Of a stretch of 64,000 bases of DNA, positions 1,926 through 33,800 are shown piece after piece. Every line of letters begins with the position of its first letter. Position 1 is the first letter of the stretch. The DNA is taken from positions 1 through 64,000 of the IMG/VR virus record IMGVR_UViG_3300004369_000001, one strand, 5' to 3'. The DNA is from a virus. The notes below the pieces were generated by a model. It was not told where the DNA came from. It worked only from the letters and a program-made list of their open reading frames with translations, and searched no databases. A program made the translations under genes and the position numbers.

Positions 1926-4900
1926 TCAAGTAGCCAAAGCAATTGATCTAAAGTCCATGATTTGAGGGACAATAGCCTGGTTTCTAGACTTCATAACAAT
2001 CTTGACTTGGAAAGAGTTAAAACTTAGACCTGTCTTCTCATATGTATAATCTCTAAATTCAAAGACATCAGAAGCTGAGATCTCAGCAATCGGGAAGACT
2101 TCAATCCAGTTAACAGTTTCAACATCAACATCAGCACCCGATTCAAATGCTTTGATGTAGACACGAATTTCCACACCTTGAGGTCTGTAGGCACCAAAGT
2201 CAATCTTCAGAGTCCTAGACAGTTGCGCTAGGTTTGCAATTCTCGTAAGATAAACTGCATCGTTTTGGTCTCCAACTGGAAGCAGAGAAACATCAGACTG
2301 AGTATCAATTAGAGAGTTAATACCCAAAGATTGAGGACCACCTGGCCAAGAGTTGATTCTATTACTGACACAAATCAGAGATGTGCGATCAAGGTCAACG
2401 TATGGTGAGAGGTTGGTATTCTCAGTTTCCATGGCAATGTCAAGGCTGATGGACTTGTTACCACCAAGTTTGTTACTCTCGTTAACTTGAGAGCAAACCA
2501 TTTGAGGAGTTACAAAGTAGTTTTCAACGTTGAGCGTAATATCGTAATACTGACCATTGTTGACAAAAGATGCCTGGTCAATTACGGATGTGCCATCGCC
2601 AACAGATGTTGCTGTCGTAGTATTTACACGAGCAGCCATCGATGTTTCTGGGAAAATCATGGTAGCGATCGAAGGACGCAGTGTCTCAAATTGGAAGTTT
2701 TGAGAAGCAAGGACGTTTCCACCACCACCTCGGATACCATTTGTGGCAACCGATGTTGTATTTAGTAAGTAATGATCCAACCAGGGATCGTCAATACTTG
2801 AGTGGACCTTGTTGATTTCCGTCAGAGGAATGCCATCAAAGTTGTAGCAGAAGACGGTTGCACCAGTTGGGTGATCAACGTCTGCAGTGCCATTAGCACC
2901 TCTACCATTAGTGGCAACAGTGATTACTTGACCGTTGGAGGAGATTGCAGAATACTGAATGATCTCATTACCAATGATCAGATAACCAGGATTGAGGTTA
3001 CCGATAGAAGCACCATTTACGAATGTGTGGAATCCACCAGCAGTCTCAACGTTAATTGAAGTTGCCCCTGCAGAGAGAGAAGATGTCAAAGTTGTAGGAG
3101 GCACTTCGGAAACCACTCCACTGATTTCCACGTTGTTGGTGCGTTGGTGCATACAATGATTCTTGTGATACACCAGGACCTTTCTATCCTTACTCTGATA
3201 CGAAGGTGCAGCAGTCGGGAATTGGTTGTAGGTGTCGCCAGAGTATGCGATGCTAGTAATAGTAGCGGTCACAACACCACCATTCTCAGAAATTGTATCG
3301 GACAGGTCGAATGCCTTATCGACATAATTTACATAAAGGACTGGGTTTGCTGCAGGGTTGCCATCGGGAAGGGTGTCACCTGTTTGATAGAAAGCAGTAA
3401 CAGTCGCAGTAGCATTGGATGTAGATCCAGCAATAATATCTACCTCTGTGGTGGGACCACCAGGAGCTCCAGGTCTGGGAGAGAAGTCACCGTTGGAAAC
3501 GGTGGACAGTTGGAAGATTGCAGTGGATTGGGAGGAAATAATTCCTTGGAATGCATCTCCATTTCCATCCAAGAAACCAGCAGACCATGTGCCTTGAATG
3601 TCGGTAAGAGTAATTGTCTCTGGATCTGTGGTTGAGTCGAAAGCAACAACTGTGCCCTCTGCATTAGAAGGAGACTGCTTCAATCGAGCACCAATCGTAT
3701 AGGAGTTATTTGTGCCAGCGGGAAGCGAAAGCACTTGCTCAGGTTGAATCGTGACCAGAGGATTATTCTTCAAAGTCGTGAAACCACCATTGGTCTCTCC
3801 CATAGAGACATTATCCAGAGTTATTGTGCCAGTAGGAGATGTAAAGTTTGCCTTATAAATTGTAAACTTCAAGTCCTCATACTGGTCAGCAGTCCAGGTA
3901 GATGCGTTTTGTGACTTAAAGAGCACACCTGCATATGGTTGCTCGGAGATCGTCCTATTACCAGACTTTTCAACGTCACCCATTCTGGAGATCCAGACTT
4001 GATATTCGTTGGAGTCGGACAGGAGCACAAAGCAGTATTCAACAGACTGTTTGATGTATACAGGGGATCTAAATTCAAATCGTGTTGGAATTTCAGCACT
4101 TTCTGAGATCTCAACATCTTCAGCATTGATCGTGATGTCCGACAGAGGCAGAATATCCTTGGTGGGATTGCCATTCTCCATTGTGCGAATTTGCATGGAG
4201 ATTGGAATATTGCCATCTCTAGACCTGAAGAAGATATCAACACCAGTGATGAAGATACCACCTTCCTCATCGACAATGAAGGATTGTGCCAGAGGGTCAT
4301 ACCAACCAATCTGACGAGTCTCTGATCTTGTGCCAGTAACGATAGTCCTTTCATCGTTAACTGTGTCTCTGACGATCTCAGCATTTCTAACTGCCAGAAT
4401 ATTCTCTCTAACAGTCTGAAGAATACCAGTTGCTTTATATTCTGTGTCTGCCGAAGAATCAACAGCACCAGCAATTCTGCTATTCTGAGCGTTAGTCGTG
4501 AAACGCACAGTCCTTGTGCCAGTTGCCCAACGTGGATTTGAATCGATCTTGGGACTGGGGATAAAGAATGTGCCTTTGAAGTTACCGACGTTATCTGTCA
4601 GGAGACGACGATCTTTAACATATGCTGCAGCGCCAGAAGTCAAACCAACCAACAACTCACCAATTTTCACGTTGCCTTGATATGTGCCATTTGCTGTTGC
4701 TGCCATCTCATTGATGTCAACATTCAGATACGGCGTATTCGATGCGTAGGAAGATGGCAGAGTCTCTGTGCCTTGACCATATGGGTTGGTTACATACCCG
4801 TCATCGGCAGATGCAACCTTCAATCTCACCTTAGATTCCGTGCCGATGACAGTTTCACCGACAACAAAGGGAATCTGGTTGCTATTGTCAATAGTGGGAT

Positions 4901-7900
4901 CGGGAGGAATTGTGGTTGCAGGGATGGAGTTGCCCTCGGAGCTGGGAGCAATGACATCTCTAGCAACGTTGCTGTTTGTGCCAGACTTATTTAACTCGAT
5001 CACCTTCGGGGTGATGTATGCACTCACATCCACACCGTCAAAGAAGCAATAGATTCTGGATCTGGGCTTCATTCTATAAACATCAAATGCCAGGTTTCTG
5101 GAGCGAATCCAGGGCACTGCTGTTTGGGACAGCATGGAGTCACCCATGGATCTACGCTCAATCCTGGGCACAACTCTTGTGCGAATACCTTGACGAGACT
5201 GGTTGGATCTCACTTGGAAAGTGCGTCTATCGTGAATGAATTCCAGACCTCTACCTCTGGTGCCAACCCAACCACCACCGCCATGGGTGCTACCAGATCT
5301 ATTGATGATTCTGTCAGTTGAAACCAGAGATTCGGAAGACCAGTTAGTCCTCCAACCACCCCATTGAATAGGTGCAAATCCTGTATTGGGATCAATATTC
5401 AATTCTCTAGAAACACTGGAGAAGTCACCTTCGACGTTTTCCACACGAGCTGGGAGACGGTTTGTTTCCAACCAGTCATCGGAAGAGGGTGTCAAGTCAA
5501 TACGACCAATAAAGGTAAAGACGTTAAATGGGTTGACGTTTTCGCTTCTAGATGCATATGGTTGCTTAACCACCTCAACACTTTCATAGGGAAGCATCGC
5601 AATATTTGCTGGGGTAACAACAATATTCTGAGACTTCTGAGTATTGATTTGTAGGGGGACGTTAGATGTATAGTGGGACGGACGAAGAATACCCTCTTGG
5701 AAATCGAGAGAGCACTTGTAGTCAGCACTATTGACATCACCAATCTTATGATCGGTAAAGTCATCCACCACAAATCCATTCTTCAAACGATCGAAACCGT
5801 TTTCGTCATAAGATCTTGTAGCATCTGTTTGCACTTCAAGAAGTGAAAGTGCTGTATAGTATTCGACGTTATTGATTCTCTTCTCCAGATCACCAATATC
5901 CTTCATCGTATAACGACGAATTACTTCCTGGGTGATGATGGTATCCCTTTGGGGATCATACATATACGGTTTGTGCTTGAAGATCGCCAGGCACATTGCA
6001 TTCTGAATATTTTCTGGCTCTTCGGGATTCTCAGCAGAGATACCGTATTGTAGTCTTAGTTTGTTGTCGTGGGTGAGGAATAGTTTATCTGTCCTTGGCA
6101 GATAGTATTCGTAGTCGCAACGGAATTCCGTTTCTGCTTTAGGAATATCAAACAGAGTAGCAACTGCAGCATTTCCAGCACCTTGATTTGTTGTGCTGAA
6201 TACACGAGCATCGAAATCGAGGGTTGCACAAGTCACCTCAAATGGACCTGTCACCGTGCCGTTACCTGTCGCCAATTCTCCAACTGCAGGACGGAAGTCA
6301 ATTTGGTCTCTAACATTCTTAGTAGATCCCTGCAGAATAGGTGCAGGAATTTCATCGAAGTCGATACCAGTATATGACTGTGCAGAGAAATAGTCACCAG
6401 ATGCTTCATGGATGAAGTAGTCGAAGACAATCATCAATTGTCTGGTCGGTGGAGTAACTCCAGGTTGTCTGACCAGTTTGGAGACGTTATAGAAGAAAGG
6501 TGTTTGACCAGAATTGAGAGTGAAGAGGTCAGTAACAACCTTACTACCCTTAACTACAGATCCATCAGCGTCGTCGATAGTTGCTCTCAGGACATTTCCA
6601 TCAGAGTCTTCACCGATGATTCTTTCGCCAGGATTGAATTCGATATTATTGAGGTTGACATTATAAAGACGCAGTGTTGCGTTAATGAAGCTAACAACAG
6701 TTGCTCTAGCACCAGATGTCTCGCCAGTGATAACAGTGCCAGGAGCAAAGAAAACTGCTTCACTCAGCACACTATATGGAATTTGAGGTGCTCCGTCAGT
6801 TTCCGATTCATATACGGCGTGAATCTTGTAGACATCGTTTAGACCGAAGGAGATCTCCTGGTCTTCGATACGAGTGCCATATAGGTTGCCATAAAGCAGA
6901 CCATACTTTTGAATATCGTTATTCTTACTGGTGCGAGTGACTTTAAGGGCACGCATCTTAGATGCGGTCTTAATCTTTCTGCTCACGATATTCTTAGATA
7001 CGAGAGCAGTCAGTTTTATTGTTGTCACTCCAGTCAAACCATCAATGGTCATAGACTGGCGATTAGCACCGAAGGTAACTGTTAGCGTGCCCGCTTCATC
7101 CAGTGCTTCCAGATCCAAGTTGTCGCCAACAGCGTATGAAGATCCAGACTGTGCAAGAATTGTAAGTTGATAGTTTTCATCATCGAGTGAAGCAAACTGC
7201 TCAGATTCTGGCAGTGCCACAGTCAAACCGCCAGACACAACTGTCTTATTTGTGAATGTGCGGTAGACGAAGAAAGATTCGTCGCTTAGAGACTTCATCG
7301 ACTCTCTGGGGAGATCGACGCTCAACTGACCCGAAGGTTGAGTTGTGTTGAAGACAAACGGTCTATATCTAACAACGGTGGTGTAATTGCCATCTGCAAT
7401 GCTGCCTTTAGTTAAAGCAGTATCGAGCAAGGCTGTTTGTGCCTGATAATCGAATACTGGAGCGCCACCAACGTTATTGCCTGATGTGTGGTTGATAGTA
7501 GACTTTGTGATCTTCTTAACAATGAGACTTGTGTCACCTTCAAATCCAGATTCACCATCTGGGGAAAGCACGTCTCCAGGACGAAGATCTTCTTCAAACT
7601 TAGATCCATTGAGACCAGTAATAATGGCACCAGACTGGTCAACAGTTATGGTTGATCCACGCACAGCCTGGGCATCATTCAGTAGAAGGTTAGCAACAAA
7701 CGAGACGGCACTGTTGCTGTTATAACCAACAGCGGATCTTGCATCAGTTAACTGATAACTGAAAACAGCGTTAATTGTGCCGACAACTCTACCGTCCTTG
7801 GTGATAACTTCACCATCGGTAAAGATACCTGATACTTGCTCAAGACCAACATAAGTGCCACTTATATCTGTAGTGGCAAATCCTCTAGCACCAGAAATTC

Positions 7901-18800: not shown

Positions 18801-21800
18801 TTCTTGATCCCACTCAGGTCTATTGGGTGGAATGTAGATGCCAGGAGTTGTGATGTAGGGTTGCCAACCAGCAGAGGTGGGAGAATAGATGATTGATTTC
18901 ACATACTCTCTGATACGAGTTAGGTGGTAGATCAGGTGTGTGCGAGTAACGTTTGTGTAGACAATGAAGTTGCCATCGCCATCAAACCAAGTTGACAGTT
19001 TATCAAACGCAGCGTTATTGCCTTTGGTGATGATATCGTAGATTACAGCGTCAATAACTTGATCTGCAAAGTCAGCATCGCCTGCATATGCGGGATAGAA
19101 GGTGACTGTCTGATCGTATGCTCTCTTCTTGATTGCTTCTCTGTTGAAGTGGATCAGGCGTGCATCAACCTTATTGCTGTTAGTGCCAGAGGCAAAGGCA
19201 GTCATATAGAGGTCAAAGAGGGTGTTAATTGCCTGACGCACGTCATAGCAGCTACCCATGTTGTATTCGGTTGGGGCAATATATGTGCCATCAACCTTGG
19301 TAACAGTAGATCCGTAGTAATTCAGACCGTTACCTGCAATGCCTTCATTAACACCTTGGATAAGGATGTCCATGAGTGTTGTGATGGCACCTGCTTGAGT
19401 TGCACATGCTTGATTCCAATCTGCCGTGCCCGTGCTGCCCACACTGAAGTCCCAAGTAACATCCAGATCTCTGATTGGGAGGTCTCCAGAATACTTACAT
19501 GGCCAAATATTTGGCAGAGATCCTGTGTAGGTGGCAGCACTCTTAGGATATGTAACAAGATTTCCACCACTAGGATCGGCAATCGTATCAGTTACGACTT
19601 GGATGAGTGCATTGACTTCGGTATCCACATCGGTGTCGCTGATTGCTGTGTCAATCGCTTTAACGCTGTAGGTGTTACCAGGAGAAACTGTTGGGTTGCC
19701 GCCTTGATAGATTTGCTTAGCAATATCTCTAGCGGTGTTGAAGATCCAGATGGACTCAGTGCTCTGAGAAGTAATATGCTGAAGATTGCCTTGGGAAATA
19801 TAGAATTCTGCAGATGTTACCATCATGTTATCGCCACCATTCTGCAGGTTCCAAGACATCCAGTAGATTAGATCTGCAACGTCGTGGACGCAGTTGATGT
19901 TACCACCAGGGATGGTCAGACTGGGATATTGAGCAACTCCACGCAGGACTGCTTCCTCAGCGATGAAACGGACGTTTTCTTCAATAGATCTTGCAGCAGC
20001 AATTCTGTTGTCGCTGGCACCATTTCTCTCGTAAGATTCAAATGTATAGGAGCTATCATTGTGACCGTCAATGTTGAAACGACCGAAACCGTTTCTAATT
20101 GTCAGAATTGCCATATCTCTGGCAAACTTAAACACAGTCTTAGTTGCTTCTTCCTCACCTTCAATGTGTGAGAGGAATCCATCTTCTCTAATGTAGAGTT
20201 TACCTGCTTCGTAGATTTCGGCGTTGCCACCAAATCTGATGTCATGGACCAGAGCATCAAGAATTCCAACAACGTCATCAATGCAATTTTGCTGACCACC
20301 AGGGACTTGGAAGTCTGCAAACTTGGACAAGTCATTCATCATGCCAACTGCTTCCTTGGCAATGATGTGCTTGTTGCGCTCGATCATATTTGCAGCGTCA
20401 ACATAGCTATTGGACTGAGATCTTGCCTGGTCGTATTGCTTGGGATCTAGAGTAACATCAGAATCTCTATATGCAGATCTGTTTGTGTATACTGCAGTGT
20501 AGTATTCATCTTGATAGATGGCAGCAGCACCCTGCCCAGCAGCAGTCTCTCCAGGAGACAGCAGCAGATTATTCACTGCCTTCTCACAAAGAGTCTTGGC
20601 AAACTCAAACGCATCGAGCATCGGTTGCAACTCATTTGTAATAAAGAGAATCTCGTTATCACTATTGAGATAGAAATCAATAGCAGCTTGTGTCTGATAG
20701 TTTCCACCAGTTGCTAAGTCGCCAATGATTGCGGGCAAGATGTGTTCCTTGAGGTCTCTGATGCAAGCAGATCTATCGGGAATGATCAAAGTCTGGACGT
20801 TATTGCCACCAAGACTAATGGTATACAGATTCTCGATATGTCCGACTGTCTCCTCGGCAATATAATCGCGGTTTTTCCAGATCAGATCACCAGCGTTTCT
20901 GAATCTATGACCAGTGGGTGCCAACTCATCAGCAATTGTATCACCCAGAGTATCAAGGCGAGACTCAACTGCAGATGTGCCACTCAGAGAATGGGGGACA
21001 CGCAGTTTTGTCGTATATGTGCCAGTCAGATCAGTATCGCTAGTGCTAATAACATACTGACACAGTTTGACAACTTCTCTCCAAGCATAGAGTGTTTGAA
21101 GCAGCTCGTTACCGATAAACTTAAGATCACCACCCTTGTTTCTATAGAAGCGGGAATTTACAATGACGTTGTAGTTACCACCATCTCTAAGGTCAGAAAC
21201 GATTGCAGGGATAATATAGTCCTTTGTATCTCGGATACAAATGTTAGTGCCATCCAAACCACCCTGATAGTCACCAGGGATGATGAAGTCTGGATAATGT
21301 GCCTGCATAATGCCCACTGCTTCTTCAGCAATCCACGCACGGTTAAGATTGATGATATCAGCAGCATCTTTAGCGAGTTGATTACCAAGATCAACCTCTT
21401 CAATCGTGATACGTTTTGCTTCGTAGTCAATAGCGCCAAGAGTAGCAGAAGAGAGGTTAGTATCCTCAAGTGTGGCATACACATCACCAGTGCCAACAAT
21501 GATTGGTTGCTGAGCATTCAGACCCAGGACAACGCCAAGGCGAGTGAAGTCAACTGAGGTTGCAACAGTGAATGCTGCAGTGAAATCTGCATAACCCTTT
21601 CTAACGCAGATGTTATCGAGGTAACCCTCAAAGTTATTTGCACCAGCAGCATCAGCGCCAATGTGCATTTCTTGACTGATGCCATAGTTGTTATTATCTA
21701 CGGCACTTGCCACTTCAGCACCATTCAGGAAAATGCGAATGGTTGATGTTGTGACATCTTTAGCCACTGCAATGTGATACCATGTGTCGGTTGCCATTGC

Positions 21801-24800
21801 AGCAGTAGTGGTCTGCACAACAGTTACCCCGTTTTGAGACAGAGTGATGTTGTTGCCACTATTACCAACTGTCAGATCACAACCCAGCGTATCCACAGCA
21901 TCGAGACTATTATCAAACAAAGTCTGGGTGCCATTAAAGTTGTCGAAACGGAATCTACCTTCAAAGGTGAATGATCCATTTTCAAATCCAAAGTCATATG
22001 TGCGAGTTGCTTCTCTGATGTAAGAAGATCCACCAACAACAAACTCATAGCTTGATGTGTTATTGAGGATCGTGCTGTCATATACGATGTTACTCAGATT
22101 GACAGAGTTGACCTCAAGCGTGCTGTTTGTAATGTATTCGCCAATCTGGAAAGTCCCAGTAACGTTGCCTGTATAGATCCACTTCAGACCAGAGTTTGCA
22201 CCTTTAATGATTGCACTTGCACCAGAAGTCATGCCCTTGAGCACTTCATCAGCGAAGAAGAGATTGTTGCCACCATCTGCATTTTTGTATGCAAACTTAG
22301 TGACGCGAATAACTTCACCAGTCTGATAACCACCGTCGGTGATGATGTATTCGGTGGGAGCAGTGCGAGTAGCGTGCGACATGTTGCCGTTGGCATACGA
22401 CAACGTATAGACACTCAGGAGACTCTGGAAGAGCGATGTTTGAGTGTTGCAGGGGGTGAGTGACTGATCGGGTGTAATTGTGGTATTAAAGAATTGCTTT
22501 TTACCATGGACACCAGTAATAGACACTCTCGGGTAGAAGTAATCTCCCTCATCGTGGGTGAAGTGCAGATGCTGCAGAATGACCTGGGATCCATTACCAA
22601 ATCCAACGGTCCCATCAACTGTTAGAGTGATTGTGCCATTTACCTCGTCATAAGTAGCACTCATGACGTTATGAGTTGTGGTTGCAGTGCTAACTTTACC
22701 AGATCCAACGTAGGTGAAGGAATCTCCAGGTTGGAGGGTCACAATCGGAGCAGCAACCGTAAATGTGTTGCCAGTCAGATTGGAAACTGCATGGGAGGTG
22801 GCAGAGTTTCTAATGACATCTTGTGCAATAGTAGATACTTCTGCATAAATGTCGGTAACTTGCTGTGCTATTGCTGTGGAGTTATCATACGCGATGGAAT
22901 ATGTGCCAGAGTCATAGACTCTGCTGTTTCCACCATATTTCATGTCGTAAGCAATTGCTTCGATAACATCTTTAATGTCGTCGATACAATCGGAATCATT
23001 GCCAGGAGAAACTGTAAATCCAGGATTCGCAGCCTTATAGACAAACAGTGCTTCAGCAGCAATCATCTCTTTGTTTCTGAGCAGCAGGTCTGCAGCGTCA
23101 ATGTATTCGCCGTTGTGAGCACCGCCGTAAGCAGCAACTGGATCTGCATAGAGACCAACAATCTTAGGACCACCAAGACCCTCGGAGGTGTAAGAGATTG
23201 CACCTGTCAGGTTGTGGGTATTCTCAGCAGACAGGGAGGTTGTGACAATATTTGCCAACTCTCTGACGGTTTGCTGGATATCCAAGCAATTGGTTAGACT
23301 CTGATTATTGCCATTTGCATAGTTGGTGTCATATGTATAACCAGGAGCAGCGCCACCATAAGTTGTGGGATCGTAGAGGACTTCAAGATCCTTAACAAAC
23401 ATAAGGTTATTCATGGCGTAATACATCATATCCCTTGCCTTATTCAGGGCAGTGATGGATTCGGGGACTTCGCCATACAAACCATTCAGCAGATACTCAC
23501 CAGTCTCATCGAAGTAGTTTTCTGCAAAGAATTGGGAGTTGAATTCGCCATTAGATCCAACGTCATTGGCGATAGCATCGACAAAGTAACCGATGTCACG
23601 TCTGCACTTATCTTGGTTGATTGTGAAGGAAGGATTAGATGCTTCTGGAGCATCGTTGAGGTTTCCAGCAGTAAGAGATTCATCCTGCCATGTCCAAATG
23701 GTAGTAACTGCTGCCCTTACATCACTACAAGACTCTGGGTCGTTGTTGGATGTATTGCTGCCAGGAGTGCCATAAGGATCACCAGGAGACTGGTCTGCAG
23801 TCAGAGATTCGTCAACATAACCTATTGCTTGATCTGCGCTGTTGACTGCTGTCCAGAGACCACCATAGTTATTTGTGATCGAGGCATCGACATACTCTTT
23901 TGCTTTACCGAGCATGTAGATCAACTCAGCAGTAACGCGATCGTAGCTGATGGCATTATTGGAGAAATACTCGTTGATCCACTTCAGGGCATACTGGTTA
24001 CCGCCAGAGTGTAGGTCAAGAGCCATGCACTCTGTCCAAAGTCTGATGTCTGCAAGATATCCATCCTTGTCACCTGCAAGCGTGCCAGGATACTGAGTCT
24101 TCATGTCATCATATGCATTCAAGACAATCTTGTCGAGATTCTTGAAGATGATACGAGTTGCGTCCTTGTATCTGGAAAGTGGATTTGTCTGGACATCGCC
24201 AGGATAGTAGAAGTCAGGATGGATAACAGCAATCCATCTTTCAGCTCTATCCACAATCTCATCTTTGTTGAGACGGATCAGACGAGCAGCATCAAATGCT
24301 CTTGGAGTAGCATTTGTCCTAACGTTGCTGTAGAAGAGGGATCTATTTCTGAGCTCATCTCCCTTAGCAAATACACCACCCTGCAGATTCTCATACTCAA
24401 TTTCAGTGCTTCTGATTTGCTCGAAGTCGAGGAAGTCTTCGTTGATTCTGGTCTCAGGATTATAAATCTCAACAGGAGTGATGCTAGACTGCGAGATATC
24501 ATCGAGGATGATATTCGGGTTTTGAATTGCAACAAGTCTCTCATAGATGAGACCGAAGAAAGTAGATCCAGCGTTGATGATCAGTGTGTCAACAGGTTGA
24601 CCATTATTGGGGTCGAGATAGGGACTGATAAAGATGATCTGGGAAACAATCTTACTTGTCGCTGAGTAGATATACTCATTGAGTTTTAGATCGAAGATGC
24701 CAGTTTCATACTTTGCTGTGCCTGATGTTTTGCTAACAAGCAGTGTGTCAGTGAGGTCTCCGTCTTCATCAATATTTGTAGACTCAACAATAGCAGTATC

Positions 24801-27800: not shown

Positions 27801-30800
27801 AGTTTCAATGATCTTGACTTGATAGTTTGCTCCAGCATCAAATCCAAGGAATCTCGCATAGTCAGACAATGCAGACTCAGTGGAAACCCAAGTCCAGGTA
27901 ACACCACCATCGCTAGCATCTCCAGAAAGATGCACTGGAGCAGTTGTGCCAGATGTGCCAGCAACTGAAGCCTGATAGATATTTCTCTTCCAGAAAACTT
28001 TATACCCAACAGGATATAGGACATGGGAATCCCATCTCTCCATATCTTGACCAAGATACTGAGGTCTAGGATATGGCTCTTCTTGGATATCGATAACAAA
28101 CTCACCAGCAGTCCTAATAAACACCCAAGTGATAGATCCATCACTTGTAGCACCTGTGGTGTGTGTTGGTGGATTTACACCAGATGTGCCACCTGCTTGT
28201 GCCTCATAGATTCTCTGAGCATAATAAACTCTATCTCCAGTTGCGTATGCAGTTGCAGTTTGCCAGAGGTTTTCATCTTCAATACCAACAAACTTACCAG
28301 AAAGAGTGTTGATATCTTGAGGGTTATCAGATTGGAGAAGATCAGTATCATTAAATGTGCCGAAGATCTTACCAACTCTATAGGTGTTACCTAGACCAGG
28401 ATCATTGAAAGTGCCCTCGGGGACATCAACAATGGTGCCATACGCTTGGACAACACCGCTGTCATTAACCTGTTGCAGGAGTGCTCCCTTGGTAAATTTG
28501 GCGTTTTGATTGATTGTAAATTCGTAGATGTTATCAATCTTGCTGTAGTTTGCATCCTTGATATAGAATTTGGGAATCACATTAGGAGTGACAAACATCT
28601 TCTTGCCATTCTTAACGGGAATGGTAGAAGACTTGGACCCTAGGGTCTGCTTAGTATTTGTCCAGACATATGTCTGAATGGTTGTGTAGAGTGACGGTGC
28701 ATCAGAGAAGTCGAGCAGTTGCAAACCACCAGCACCAAGATCCCACTGATCGATTGCAGGTTGTGATGTAACCGTAGTCCAAGTTGCAGCAGTAAACTCA
28801 GATATTGTTAGATTAGTGTGGTTTGTTGCTTCTGTCAGAGTATATACATTTCTTACAGAGGCATGTGATCTGTCGATCTTAACAGCAACAATGTCGCTCT
28901 CAATAGAAGTTACAGTAAACTGAGTTGTTGGCAGGACAAAACTAGCGCCATCGGGGAATTCTGCCTTGCTAGAGATAACCACATCATCAATATTACCGAT
29001 AAAGCACAGAGAAGAAGTTTGTGTAGCATCGCCACCGATACCAACGTCTCCCATGTTTACATCGATCAGAGACTGATATGTTAGCTGTGGGTTGCCATTT
29101 ACAAATACAGTGAAGTCCCAAACGCCAACAGCAACGTTTTCCTTGACAAGTGCAATATGGACCCATGCATTAGATCCGAATGCAGTGTAGTTTGTAGTTG
29201 AGGTGGAAACAGAGACCTGAGCACCATTGATGCTCAACTCCATCTTGCCTTCATCAGCATCTCCATTGATTCCATTAACTCTCAGTTGAGCGCCAGAAGT
29301 CCCATCGATTTCCAGGACATCAAAGAAAATAGGAGTTGTGTTTAGAGCAGCATACTGCCCTGTAGACATGTTAAACCAACCAGCAACCGTCCAGTTGAGG
29401 CTGCTGCTATCAATGCCTTCGTAGAATGCTCTGTTGGGAGCATCCAATTTCAGAGATCCAGTGCCAAATCTATAGATTGAAGTGTCAATGTCGGCATTGC
29501 CAGGAAGTGCAGTGCTGTATGTGCCAATATTTCTCTTAGTTGTATCGTAACCCTCATCATTCTCATCATCAAATCTGAAGACTGCAAATTGCTCTGGCAC
29601 CAGTCTTTCGTTAATGACGATGATGTCACCAGAGTTGTCAACGACAGAAGTTTTGTTTCTAGATCCAATCTGATCAGTATTCTCAATTATCGATTGCTGT
29701 TGTAGGGTGCCATCAAACTTCAAGGAGTGGATGGTTGTTACCTTTCTATCTTCTGCATAGTCCAAAGCAGTTGTGATGACAATATTGCCAAACACATCAA
29801 CATGCAACCCAGTGACATTGATTGACTGGAAGTCTCCCTGAGGAGTCATTGTTTTGATGAATTTCCAAGGAGAAGTTTCTTGGACCTGACTCAGAGTAAA
29901 CCTACCAAACTGGATCTTCTCAAACTTACCAGAAGCATTGTTGTAGACATCCCAGATGATGAATACGTCACCATACTCATCGATATCAAACTTAGGATTC
30001 CTTACATATCCACCACCAATCGGAGGAATTTGTTTGACGTAATCCACTTCGATGTTTGCGCCATCGAAGAAGAATTCGCCATAGATTAGGTTATCTTCGT
30101 CGAAGTTGACACCAGTAAAGAAGAAGCGATCATTTGCGATCCACTTAATCTGTGTAATTGTCTCATCGCCACCAGGAGAGGCAATCTTACGCTTCTCTCT
30201 GATGTCTCCATCATTGTTAGATTGAATCACCCAAATATCATTTGGATCCAGTGCCTGAGTGTCTGTGTGTCCAACCAAGTAGATCGACTTGTTTTGATCT
30301 AGATAAATGTCTTGGACATAATCACGTCTTGTGGCACCAGAGATACCTGCAATGGATTTCTGCCACTGTAGAGTGCCTGTGGGGGCATTCTGAGCGTCTC
30401 TTTCGGAGATGTACTTACCAAACCACACATCTGGGTTATATGCTGTAGATACAGGATCATATGTTTGGCCTGCAACATAAATGGCATCGTTTTCTTCTGT
30501 GTCATCAACATACAGAGCAACGAATTCCATTCTCTTGTCGCCAGCATTATTTGGCAGCAGAGTCCTAACCCAAAGGACATCACCGTTGGCATCAAACTTA
30601 GCAAGAATGCCAAGCATATCGTCATCGGCAGTCTCTTCGAGAGATCCACAAATGTAATACTCTCTTCTAGAGGTCATCAATGAGTCATGGATCTGCAGAG
30701 TGCCACCATCATTGATATACTCAGACAACCAATATCTCGTCTTAGTGAAAGATTGAGGATGACTTACGCGAATCTGAGGAGGATTGTTGATATCAAAACC

Positions 30801-33800
30801 GTTACCAGAGTTGATGATATTAAAAGATCCAGCAACACCAGCAGAGTCAAGATTGATTTCAAATTCAGCGTCTTTACCAGTGTCACTGATCAACTCATAG
30901 GTTGGGGGAATTAACTGGGTGTAACCAGTGCCTTCCTGATCAACTGTGACCGACTCAATGCCAGACACAACTTTAACTTTGAAAGTTTTGTTGGTGTTTG
31001 AGATGATTGGCTCGGAGTTGACAATGATTTCATCGCCAGTAATCAAGTCATGATTCTCGGATGTGGTAATGACACCATAAGGTCTGTCACCAATAATTTC
31101 TTTGGTGTATGAGGTGATTGCAACACCTTTAATCGAATCAATAATACCAGATGCACCGAAACCTCCAGTGCCAGTATTATCAAAGAAGATGGTATCATTA
31201 ACCTGATAAGATTCACCAGGGTTTTCGATAACGAAACCATCAATCTGAGCAGTCTCGAATTGAGTAACTGTCTCAATGTCAATATCAACTTTAGATTGTG
31301 CGGAGACTTTCGGGAAGTAGTCATAAATCTGAAGAGTTGCCTCTTCTGTCATTTCTAGGACTTCCTGTTGCTCTAGAGCATCAATGATGCCATCCTCGTT
31401 ACTATCTTGGGTTTCAAAGATGATAGGATATCCTTCAATCTCAGTAGTGAGCACATCCGACTCTTGGTTGGGTTGACGCTCAACGTCAATATCCACCTCA
31501 ACGAAAGGCACACGATATCTAACAACATCCTTAGGAATATTTTCCTGAGTTGCACCCTGCCTCAAATTCCACTCATCGGGAAGGGAGTTGAATGCAGGTC
31601 CGAGGATGTATGGGAATTGTGGCACACCAGCATCCGAAGAATCAATAGTCACAAAGTATGCATAAGTGCCATCGGGATAATCTGGTGTCTTACAGAAACG
31701 ACCGTTATACTGGTCAAGGTCACCAGACTGGAAGATATATTCATAGTCAGGCACAAAGGATCCTGCAGGATACTCTGCAAGCAGAGGACCATCAATACGC
31801 TGAGGATTTGGATTTGTCAATGCATCAAAAACAATCTCATCTTTCAGTGTGTATGATGTGCGAAGTCTTCTGATGCCACTATTTTGATCAGTGGGATCTG
31901 CATATCCATAAGGACCATAGATGGGGTTGCCGTCATATGCCCAACCAAGAATAGGAGAGTGATCGTAGTTGGTTTCTAATTCTTGGAATCTATTTGTTTC
32001 TTGATTTAGGAATACGTTGTCACCAACCACATAACGCAATTCTTTTGGATCTGACAGGTGAGCATATTCACCACCATATTGGTTGTTGAGACCAGTGAAG
32101 GCATAACCTCTTGCATTGTCATACTTAGACTCTAATTCATATTCAAAGTTTTTATTCCAAGCAAACACATTTGCCTCAAAGGTGGCAAATTCACCAACCG
32201 CTTCGAGTCTTACTGTGGTATTACCCTGGGTATAATTGATACCTCTGTTGATAATTTCAATACCAATAACCTTACCAGCATCTTCACCAACGGTTGCAAT
32301 AGATGCTTTTGCAATTGCACCAAAACCATCACCATTGATAATGACCCTGGGGGCAGTTGTGTAGCGTCTACCAGAGTTAATTGTGGCAATAGACACAATA
32401 CGACCATTTAGGACGATTGGTTGTGCCAAAGCACCTTCACCCGAGGTTACAGTGACTTGGGGTAGGGATGTATAACCAGATCCAGGATTCAACAGAGTGA
32501 CACTCTGAATTGGACCGCGAATATTTGCAATAGCAGTAGCACCAGCGCCACCACCACCAGTGATTGTGATACTTGGTTGTGAAGTAAATCCACTACCAGC
32601 AGATGCCACCAGGATTCTGGTGATTACTCCATTGGTAACCACAGCGGTGCCAGATGCACCTGTGCCACCGCCACCAACAATAGAAATCAGTGGCGAGGAT
32701 GTGTAACCACTACCACCATTTGTGACTTCAAAGGATTCAACGCTACCGTTAACGGTAACAGATGCAGACGCGCCAGCTCCACCACCACCTTCAATCAAAA
32801 CCACTGGGGGAGCACCAGCATCATAGTTTTGACCAGGATTCAAAACATTGATCCCTGTAAGAGGACCATAGAGAATCGCTTCGGCAGATTTATATGTCCA
32901 GATAGAGACACCATTAACCCATGCACCGATAGCACTATTCGGTTTGATCTGTTCTCTCTCCGAGACGGTATTTACCACTCTCGGAATTCTGATCATCTTT
33001 CTCTGGTTACCAGGAATCAGAGCAGATCCAGTGAAGGGTCCAATCTTATAGTTTGGCAGACCAGATGCTGCCACATACACATAGTTATTATTGAAGAAAC
33101 TATTCTGAATATTAGTAGTAAATTCAGTAACAACTTTGTTGATAGATTCTTCTGTAGACTTACCTCTGTTGAGGTCAACAGAAAGAAGGATATTACCAAC
33201 GGGGACAATGGTGCTCGGGGTGTCAATTCTATACGAGAAAGTATAGTCATCAATACGAGAAGACACCAGGAATGTGCCGTTATAGATCACAGGGTTTGCA
33301 CCGTAAATTGTAACGGTATCTTCAACCAACAAACCGTGTGGTTGCTCAGTTGTCACTGTAGCAATCTGCAGAAGACCGCCAGGTTCGATGTTAGCAACCT
33401 GAATCAGTTTCTTGACATTATATAACCAAGATTCCAGTCTTTGCTCACCAGGAGAATCGGATCCCAAGGCAGCAACGTTAAGTTTATCGCCAGGCAGGTA
33501 ATAGGACCCAGTATCATCCAGAATTGTGCCTGCCGCTTCGGCAATACCAAGGACACGCATCTTGACCTGATTGGTCTGACCGAAGTTGGCATAGATGAAG
33601 ATATTTGAGCTAATTTTGGACCCAGGATCCCAATCCTCTACAACACCATTCTTACTTCTGGTGCATTCGATGAATTGGTTAAGAGACTTCTCTTTATACT
33701 GAATCTCCTCATTTTCTTCAATAAAGAAGGTGCCGTTTCTCTCTGGCCATCCAATAGTCGAGTCAACGGTGATAATCTGATCAGTTGTAGTCAGGGGCTC

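Follow-up and report, generated by a model that had tools for sequence, protein, structure and literature searches.

We analysed a 64,000-nucleotide stretch of viral DNA (positions 1 to 64,000 of IMG/VR record IMGVR_UViG_3300004369_000001; hereafter the window), in which one giant open reading frame (ORF) encodes a gp7-like baseplate protein of 6791 amino acids (aa). This protein contains nine units (U1–U9) that are predicted to adopt the phycobiliprotein (PBP) fold, and five of its cysteines appear to occupy the position of the second bilin-binding cysteine (beta-Cys153/155) of phycocyanin and phycoerythrin beta subunits. The most likely role of these cysteines would be covalent attachment of a bilin, with a T-type lyase as the natural candidate enzyme; we judge the chances of this reading to be about even. 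The source contig in IMG/VR is 107.8 kb long, has an estimated completeness of 58% and belongs to a T4-like cyanomyovirus whose proteins are most similar to those of the isolates P-TIM40, S-WAM1 and P-RSM6. The giant ORF matches phrog_701 and PHROG families of baseplate wedge and virion structural proteins, and its first 1000 aa match genes labelled gp7 or baseplate wedge in P-SSM4, P-SSM2, S-MS29 and other phages. Residue N of the ORF corresponds to window positions 36251-3N+1 to 36251-3(N-1). Only 26 cysteines occur in the 6791 aa, and 17 of them lie within aa 4075–5668. A search of the contig revealed no second unit-bearing gene.

An earlier note on this DNA, made from the letters alone, had listed five helices that start with a cysteine (C4175, C4322, C4601, C5616 and C5668), and all five peptides were present as written. 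AlphaFold2 models were built from alignments of related loci for two segments of the protein, aa 3975–4660 (predicted local distance difference test score, pLDDT, 64) and aa 4940–5800 (pLDDT 79; predicted template modelling score, pTM, 0.72). At four of the sites the modelled helix begins one residue after the Cys (C4175, helix 4176–4195; C4322, 4323–4341; C5616, 5617–5638; C5668, 5669–5686), and C4601 is itself the first residue of helix 4601–4620. Across 76 related loci, the Cys was retained in 285 of 289 aligned cases when the five sites were pooled (single sites in Table 1). The cysteines of a second motif, C-x-x-D, were likewise conserved, and those at positions 4075, 4791, 4882, 5064, 5222 and 5585 varied freely. 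A hidden Markov model (HMM) seeded on the five Cys-capped helices and iterated to convergence on the window and its relatives gave 241 hits, of which 111 were distinct, and every one of the 111 distinct copies contained the Cys. The consensus of this motif (the H motif) is roughly N....[NT]-C-[AS]-D-V-Q-S-A-I-x-T-L, and at E ≤ 1e-3 the HMM recovered exactly the five sites in the window protein and no others. The Cys-capped helix pattern is therefore far beyond chance.

Sequence profiles and structural models both point to a PBP fold for the units that carry these helices. The Pfam family PF00502 (Phycobilisome) matched aa 3900–5800 with a summed score of 53.3 bits (E 4e-14; cut-off 22.2), with no single stretch passing and the match confined to profile positions 28–84. 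Genuine PBPs from Synechococcus RCC307 and Fischerella PCC 9431 served as references, and hhalign aligned the profiles of U2, U5, U7 and U8 with 12 of them at a probability of 73–93% over PBP residues 33–103 (helix A/B to E). Where these alignments extend far enough, the Cys of the C-x-x-D motif falls on PBP Cys82/84. Six cysteines occupy this first site on helix E, at PBP Cys82 (C4216, C4422, C5005, C5163, C5323 and C5454), with little or no variation in relatives; U2 and U9 of the window phage have no Cys there. A plain sequence search of aa 3900–5800 against Protein Data Bank sequences gave nothing relevant, and megablast against phage genomes gave no match.

In structure searches, Foldseek returned PBP beta chains at a probability of 1.00. 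Since its E-values were weak (0.1) for the 861-aa model, VIA-align was used as a second look to obtain alignment ranges. U2 (model residues 49–220) superposed on C-phycocyanin beta residues 32–172 with a root mean square deviation (rmsd) of 1.8 Å over 129 aa (Z 15–16.6), U5 (model 17–172) on residues 31–172 of beta chains with an rmsd of 2.0–2.4 Å over ∼131 aa (Z 15–17), and U8 (model 474–619) on residues 34–172 of 2bv8_B with an rmsd of 2.2 Å over 126 aa (Z 15.3). Overall, the three units gave Z 15–17 and an rmsd of 1.8–2.4 Å over 126–139 aa, with PBP chains in all 50 of the rows listed. Most superpositions start at chain residue 28–34, and the few that reach residues 3–9, in the X–Y hairpin region, do so through the helix of a neighbouring unit. 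On these models, the units are PBP-fold domains running from helix A through the end of helix H.

The earlier note had proposed that the capping cysteines lie at a beta-155-like position. For U2 the proposal held: helix H is formed by model residues 202–221, the superposition ends with model residue 220 on chain residue 172, and, provided that helix H has no gap, C4175 (model residue 201) would then fall close to beta-Cys153 (155 in consensus numbering), a register that the model supports well. The Cys-capped helices correspond to helix H, and the beta-153/155 equivalence of the other four cysteines is plausible. When the H-motif profile was aligned with beta subunits, its best local alignment covered residues 151–172 and placed the Cys on Cys153, and helix H was also the best location in the alpha, allophycocyanin (APC) and pooled PBP sets. 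The superposition of U2 and the profile alignment give one and the same register for the second Cys. In genuine CpcB sequences, residue 153 is the second bilin Cys and Asp39 is present as well; in phycocyanin structures, Asp39 holds the beta-155 bilin.

A matching Asp was found in the phage units. The Asp that opens the first helix of a unit (D-A-A start) was placed on beta-Asp39 by hhalign, and its conservation followed that of the helix-H Cys. In the units with this Cys (U1/U3, U2, U4, U6 and U7), Asp stood at the 39-equivalent in 225 of 231 locus-cells, which are not independent events, and Cys never occurred at the 40-equivalent. U5 and U8 are without a helix-H Cys; Asp was present at the 39-equivalent in under half of the cases, and Cys stood at the 40-equivalent in 49 of the 76 loci for U5 and in about 40 of 76 for U8. 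One relative (locus L031) has regained both the Asp39-equivalent and the helix-H Cys in U8. This is the pattern expected of a pocket with one covalent Cys, on either wall, in which the Asp is constrained only if the site is intact. Together, the helix-H Cys and the Asp39-equivalent probably form a conserved second site, distinct from the C-x-x-D site of helix E, which resembles Cys84. The Cys beside the Asp39-equivalent on helix A (equivalent to window aa 4963 and 5419) was seen in many relatives, only in U5 and U8, and may represent an attachment Cys that serves this pocket from a new position.

Some of the helices that open a unit are separated from those that close it in this protein, because whole units or beta-rich domains have been inserted in the loops. 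The suggestion that the array grew by domain-in-domain insertion was borne out: both units and beta-rich domains were found in the B–E and G–H loops of other units. In the models, the first half of the array runs from U1 (A/B only) through the complete U2 to U3 (E-F'-G-H) and U4, which has a beta-rich insert between helix G and the C4601 helix. U1 would be the outer half of a unit that U3 completes. In the second half, the complete U5 is followed by the A/B-E-F'-G helices of U6, U7 and U8 in turn, then by three closing helices (5540–5558, which is Cys-less, 5617–5638 and 5669–5686) and finally by U9. VIA-align showed that helix 5540–5558 closes U8; the C5616 helix would then close U7 and the C5668 helix U6, which fits the Asp rule, since U8 has Ala at the 39-equivalent and a Cys-less helix H.

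Relatives gave the same picture. In a catalogue of 23 proteins, tokens with only helix A/B and those with only helix E were balanced, at 1 + 1 in the window protein and 2 + 2 in both S-RIM44 and locus L022, and runs of two or three E helices were followed by an equal number of closing helices in the window protein, L031 and L066. A beta-rich insert of ∼325 aa lies precisely in the B–E loop of U8 in relatives. Growth by insertion of units into the B–E loop is thus well supported. The U8 loop is also a hot spot (breakpoints aa 5450/5451; region of window 20094–20105), where the inserts of relatives differ, from roughly 320 to >1000 aa, and the flanking helices stay ∼50% identical despite these differences. 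A further beta-rich repeat, with the signature F-T-C-x-x-D...H-x-Y-P-R-x-x-D-P, sits in B–E or G–H loops of the PBP-like units and reaches at least 20 copies in the C-terminal halves of some relatives (L035, L065 and L066). The single copy in the window (aa 4487–4594; window 22470–22793) is degenerate and Cys-less, and the conserved Cys and His of the repeat might bind metal.

The earlier note had tied the second Cys to T-type lyases and raised the possibility of a cpeT-like gene elsewhere in this genome. Such a gene was found: a CpeT-family ORF (PF06206, 40.8 bits) lies ∼44 kb from the giant gene. The psbA, pebS/pcyA and ho1 families were not found, which says little on a 58%-complete contig. 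For comparison, we examined 16 cyanomyovirus isolates from 16 genera. A cpeT gene was present in 11 of them and CpeS, an S-type lyase, in none (0/16); the lyases found in these phages all belong to the T-type class. PBP-like units occurred in 11/11 phages with cpeT versus 2/5 without it (Fisher P = 0.018, uncorrected for phylogeny). Among the five phages without cpeT, P-SSM2, S-CAM9 and P-TIM68 had no units, P-SSM2 matching neither the U2–U3 segment nor any unit profile, and ACG-2014f and S-SKS1 had at least one unit. In S-PM2, S-CAM4 and S-RIM44, cpeT lies 0.3–1.5 kb upstream of a unit-bearing giant tail gene on the same strand, and the encoded tail proteins (3780–4060 aa) have units with both types of Cys. 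It is plausible from these comparisons that phage CpeT serves the helix-H Cys, on comparative evidence that is mixed.

Two features of these loci were seen in passing. A gene for a 2-oxoglutarate-Fe(II) oxygenase stands between cpeT and the giant tail gene in S-PM2 (165307–165888) and S-RIM44 (22376–22948). In S-PM2 (NC_006820.1, 165928–177267), RefSeq places 16 tRNA features with the same locus tag inside the coding sequence (CDS) of the giant 'short tail fiber protein'; the frame runs through 3779 aa without a stop, so that the tRNA placements appear to be artefacts of annotation.

Taken as a mechanism, the five cysteines would each be the first residue of helix H, or the residue just before it, at the beta-Cys153/155 position, and each would form a second site with the helix-A Asp at the beta-39-equivalent. 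A bilin made in the infected cell would be attached covalently to the helix-H Cys by a candidate T-type lyase, either phage CpeT or the enzyme of the host, to give a baseplate with up to 11 chromophores per chain. The array itself would have been built up as whole units and beta-rich domains entered the B–E and G–H loops of existing units. That a bilin is attached, which lyase does so and whether the site has a function connected with light are all predictions. A broader proposal, that T4-like cyanophages build bilin-carrying PBP domains into their baseplate and tail proteins and that the phage's own T-type lyase chromophorylates the helix-H Cys, is possible, and we lean against it at present.

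Several results weigh against bilin attachment at a beta-155-like site. With regard to the register, no significant sequence alignment between a unit and a PBP reached helix H, the similarity detected by hhalign being limited to helices A/B–E. The placement of C4175 on Cys153 is an extrapolation from the ends of the aligned range, made for U2 alone. The unit profiles showed no beta preference, and a test of beta-subunit ancestry on profile scores was negative, the alpha and APC groups scoring as well or better; structural Z-scores favoured beta chains by 1–3 units only. The pairing of the C5616 helix with U7, the C5668 helix with U6 and the C4322 helix with U1/U3 is drawn from helix order and the Asp rule and not from observed contacts. 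If the beta-155 likeness were a coincidence, the protein would simply have helical repeats with a Cys at the start by chance. The short H-motif alignments to PBP helix H are not significant by themselves (P 0.07–0.39; P = 0.39 for the H motif on its own), and middling structural Z-scores are easily reached by helical bundles. However, the superpositions (Z 15–17, rmsd ∼2 Å over ∼130 residues) span the full globin core and brought up PBP chains throughout the rows listed, PF00502 and hhalign provide independent sequence evidence, the Cys is present in all 111 motif copies, and helix H was the best local alignment in all four PBP groups tested. We therefore regard coincidence as extremely improbable.

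The conserved cysteines could instead be structural. Disulfides might form within a unit (helix-E Cys to helix-H Cys), between nested neighbours or between baseplate copies, where they would make an extracellular virion protein more stable in oxic seawater, and the PBP fold would be a scaffold only. Conserved cysteines of extracellular proteins are usually disulfides, and most relatives have exactly two conserved Cys per unit. Helix-E and helix-H cysteines alternate 1:1 in the tail proteins of S-PM2 and S-RIM44, as disulfide pairs would, a count that fits either explanation. Moreover, C5616 and C5668 always occur together in the related loci where aligned, and C4175 and C4322 do likewise. Yet the two types of Cys are lost independently. 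Tyr4065 replaces the helix-E Cys of U2 in the window phage and in 15 other loci (49 of 65 relatives have Cys there), and C4175 is nevertheless kept in all of these; conversely, U5 and U8 retain the helix-E Cys without a second Cys in the window lineage. In C-phycocyanin structures the beta-84 and beta-155 sites are ∼35 Å apart, and U2 superposes on this fold at 1.8 Å. The second Cys stands either at the helix-H start or at helix-A position 40, on one side or the other of a single pocket, and these two positions exclude each other, contrary to what a pair would show; disulfides also leave unexplained why the Asp39-equivalent is conserved only alongside the helix-H Cys. A disulfide within a unit, including one with the C-x-x-D Cys, is disfavoured and disulfides between units or chains are possible; as a whole, a structural role seems to us rather unlikely.

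A third explanation accepts a functional Cys–Asp site and gives it another purpose. The partner could be a metal, a redox partner or a ligand on the host surface, or the thiol could act in folding or assembly, with CpeT acting only on host phycoerythrin. Cysteines at helix N-termini have a lowered pKa and are generally reactive. The association between the H-motif Cys and cpeT was weak in the 16 phages (Fisher P = 0.14, likewise uncorrected for phylogeny): P-SSM4 has cpeT and Cys-free units, P-RSM4 has no clear helix-H type Cys, and an H-like Cys motif persists in S-SKS1 and ACG-2014f, which have no cpeT. It follows from P-SSM4 and P-RSM4 that phage CpeT must have a role independent of these sites. 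Furthermore, the three adjacencies of cpeT and a tail gene may reflect a single ancestral gene order, and the case for bilin binding is one of homology throughout. Against a non-bilin partner, the units keep precisely the two residue pairs by which PBPs hold their bilins, namely the helix-E Cys with the Asp three residues on, and the Cys at the helix-H start with the Asp39-equivalent. The units occur only in cyanophages, and both the hosts and the auxiliary metabolic gene sets of these phages make bilins; cpeT adjoins unit-bearing genes in three genera. A non-bilin role is, in our view, improbable. The units of P-SSM4 are of interest in themselves: its gp7 (L219/L220, 57144–79082) has three units with Q, K and V at the helix-E position and no H motif, and these look like a natural 'apo' variant.

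Table 1. Features of the giant ORF and of the cpeT locus. Units are predicted from sequence profiles and AlphaFold2 models; retention of Cys refers to aligned related loci.
Feature	Residues	Position (window)	Strand	Cys retained	Remarks
Giant ORF	6791 aa	15876..36251	minus		gp7-like baseplate wedge / virion structural protein; carries the entire unit array
PBP-like units U1–U9	3984–5800	18852..24302	minus		Nine units, broken up by beta-rich and Laminin_G_3 inserts
U1	3984–4022	24186..24302	minus		Helix A/B only; Asp3987 at the beta-39-equivalent position
U2	4026–4195	23667..24176	minus		Complete unit, in the B–E loop of U1/U3; helix H capped by C4175
H-type helix with C4175		23667..23747	minus	66/66	Cys codon 23727–23729; HMM E 5e-10
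U3	4204–4342	23226..23642	minus		Helices E-F'-G-H only; C-R-R-D motif at C4216; C4322 caps helix H
H-type helix with C4322		23226..23306	minus	48/48	HMM E 2e-6
U4	4383–4621	22389..23105	minus	69/73 (C4601)	A/B, E (C4422), G, beta-rich insert (aa ∼4487–4594) in the G–H loop, helix H from C4601; HMM E 1.5e-4; model confidence lower here
U5	4956–5111	20919..21386	minus		Complete; E-helix C5005; own helix H Cys-less (Thr5092 at the site)
U6	5115–5226	20574..20909	minus		A/B, E (C5163), F', G; without a local helix H
U7	5281–5385	20097..20411	minus		A/B, E (C5323), F', G; without a local helix H
U8	5413–5558	19578..20015	minus		Complete; E-helix C5454; Cys-less helix H, aa 5540–5558; Ala5418 at the beta-39-equivalent
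H-type helix with C5616		19338..19424	minus	51/51	pLDDT 82–90; HMM E 2e-9
H-type helix with C5668		19188..19268	minus	51/51	Cys codon 19248–19250; pLDDT 81–85; HMM E 8e-10
U9	5690–5800	18852..19184	minus		Last unit; both Cys absent in the window phage; Cys at the E-helix position in some relatives
CpeT-family ORF	152 aa	Outside the window (about 80.3–80.7 kb of the contig)			PF06206, 40.8 bits

Besides the PBP-like units, the giant protein has a YHYH domain (PF14240, E 2e-29; aa 1343–1537, window 31641–32225), two Laminin_G_3/concanavalin-like domains (window ∼28900–29400 and 21600–22000) and a weak match to CBM_5_12. By its domain matches, the protein is a mosaic of putative binding modules. 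A cluster of oxygenase and halogenase genes at window 56–64 kb was flagged as encoding possible fibre-tailoring enzymes.

The analysis adds three points. The beta-155-like second site appears to be under its own selection, as a pair of Cys and Asp39-equivalent; the attaching Cys seems able to shift within the pocket; and the nesting of units by loop insertion is an unusual route to a repeat array. No paper on PBP-like domains in phage virion proteins was found in a literature search whose coverage was incomplete. If pigment is attached, the virions would be chromoproteins, which the papers found do not describe. If the phage's own lyase serves these sites, cpeT would gain a virion-directed function, as would pebS, pcyA and ho1 with it, and the particle would bear an organ that absorbs or senses light, a possible basis of light-dependent adsorption. 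Even if there is no pigment, the units would clearly show that an antenna fold of the host has been taken over to build a virion. According to Liu et al. 2019, phages P-HM1 and P-HM2 fail to adsorb in the dark; the giant protein, whose many PBP-fold units keep both bilin-site pairs, is a concrete and bench-testable candidate in such light-dependent adsorption.

Compared with PBP beta subunits (CpcB, CpeB and cryptophyte beta; PF00502), the phage units share a globin-like core that spans helices A to H, with a long G–H loop, the helix-E Cys and Asp at Cys82/84, and the second Cys at the helix-H start, at about Cys153/155, with Asp39. In contrast to the free 170-aa subunits, they are built as modules into a baseplate protein of 6791 aa, show no clear X–Y hairpin for alpha/beta pairing and have a B–E loop that is ∼7 residues shorter, such that the first Cys opens helix E. 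They are also nested in each other's loops, and their sequence similarity to PBPs is detectable only over helices A/B–E. The T-type lyases (CpcT, which acts on phycocyanin Cys-beta153, CpeT and cyanophage CpeT) have a counterpart in the CpeT-family protein encoded in the genome of the window phage, but its gene is some 44 kb from the giant gene, and cpeT and the H-type Cys are weakly associated.

The core-membrane linker ApcE offers a precedent for a PBP domain inside a larger multi-domain protein, with a loop insertion within the domain, and it matched the units with Z 15.2 and an rmsd of 1.9 Å over 118 aa (4xxi_A; VIA-align). ApcE differs in having one PBP domain, in being part of the phycobilisome and in binding its bilin autocatalytically at another Cys, whereas the phage virion protein has nine units. 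In phytochromes and cyanobacteriochromes, the covalent Cys can shift from one to the other of two positions along a single bilin pocket. The mutually exclusive cysteines at the helix-H start and at helix-A position 40 of the phage units resemble this by analogy only: the GAF/PAS fold is unrelated, and we take the analogy as a lead.

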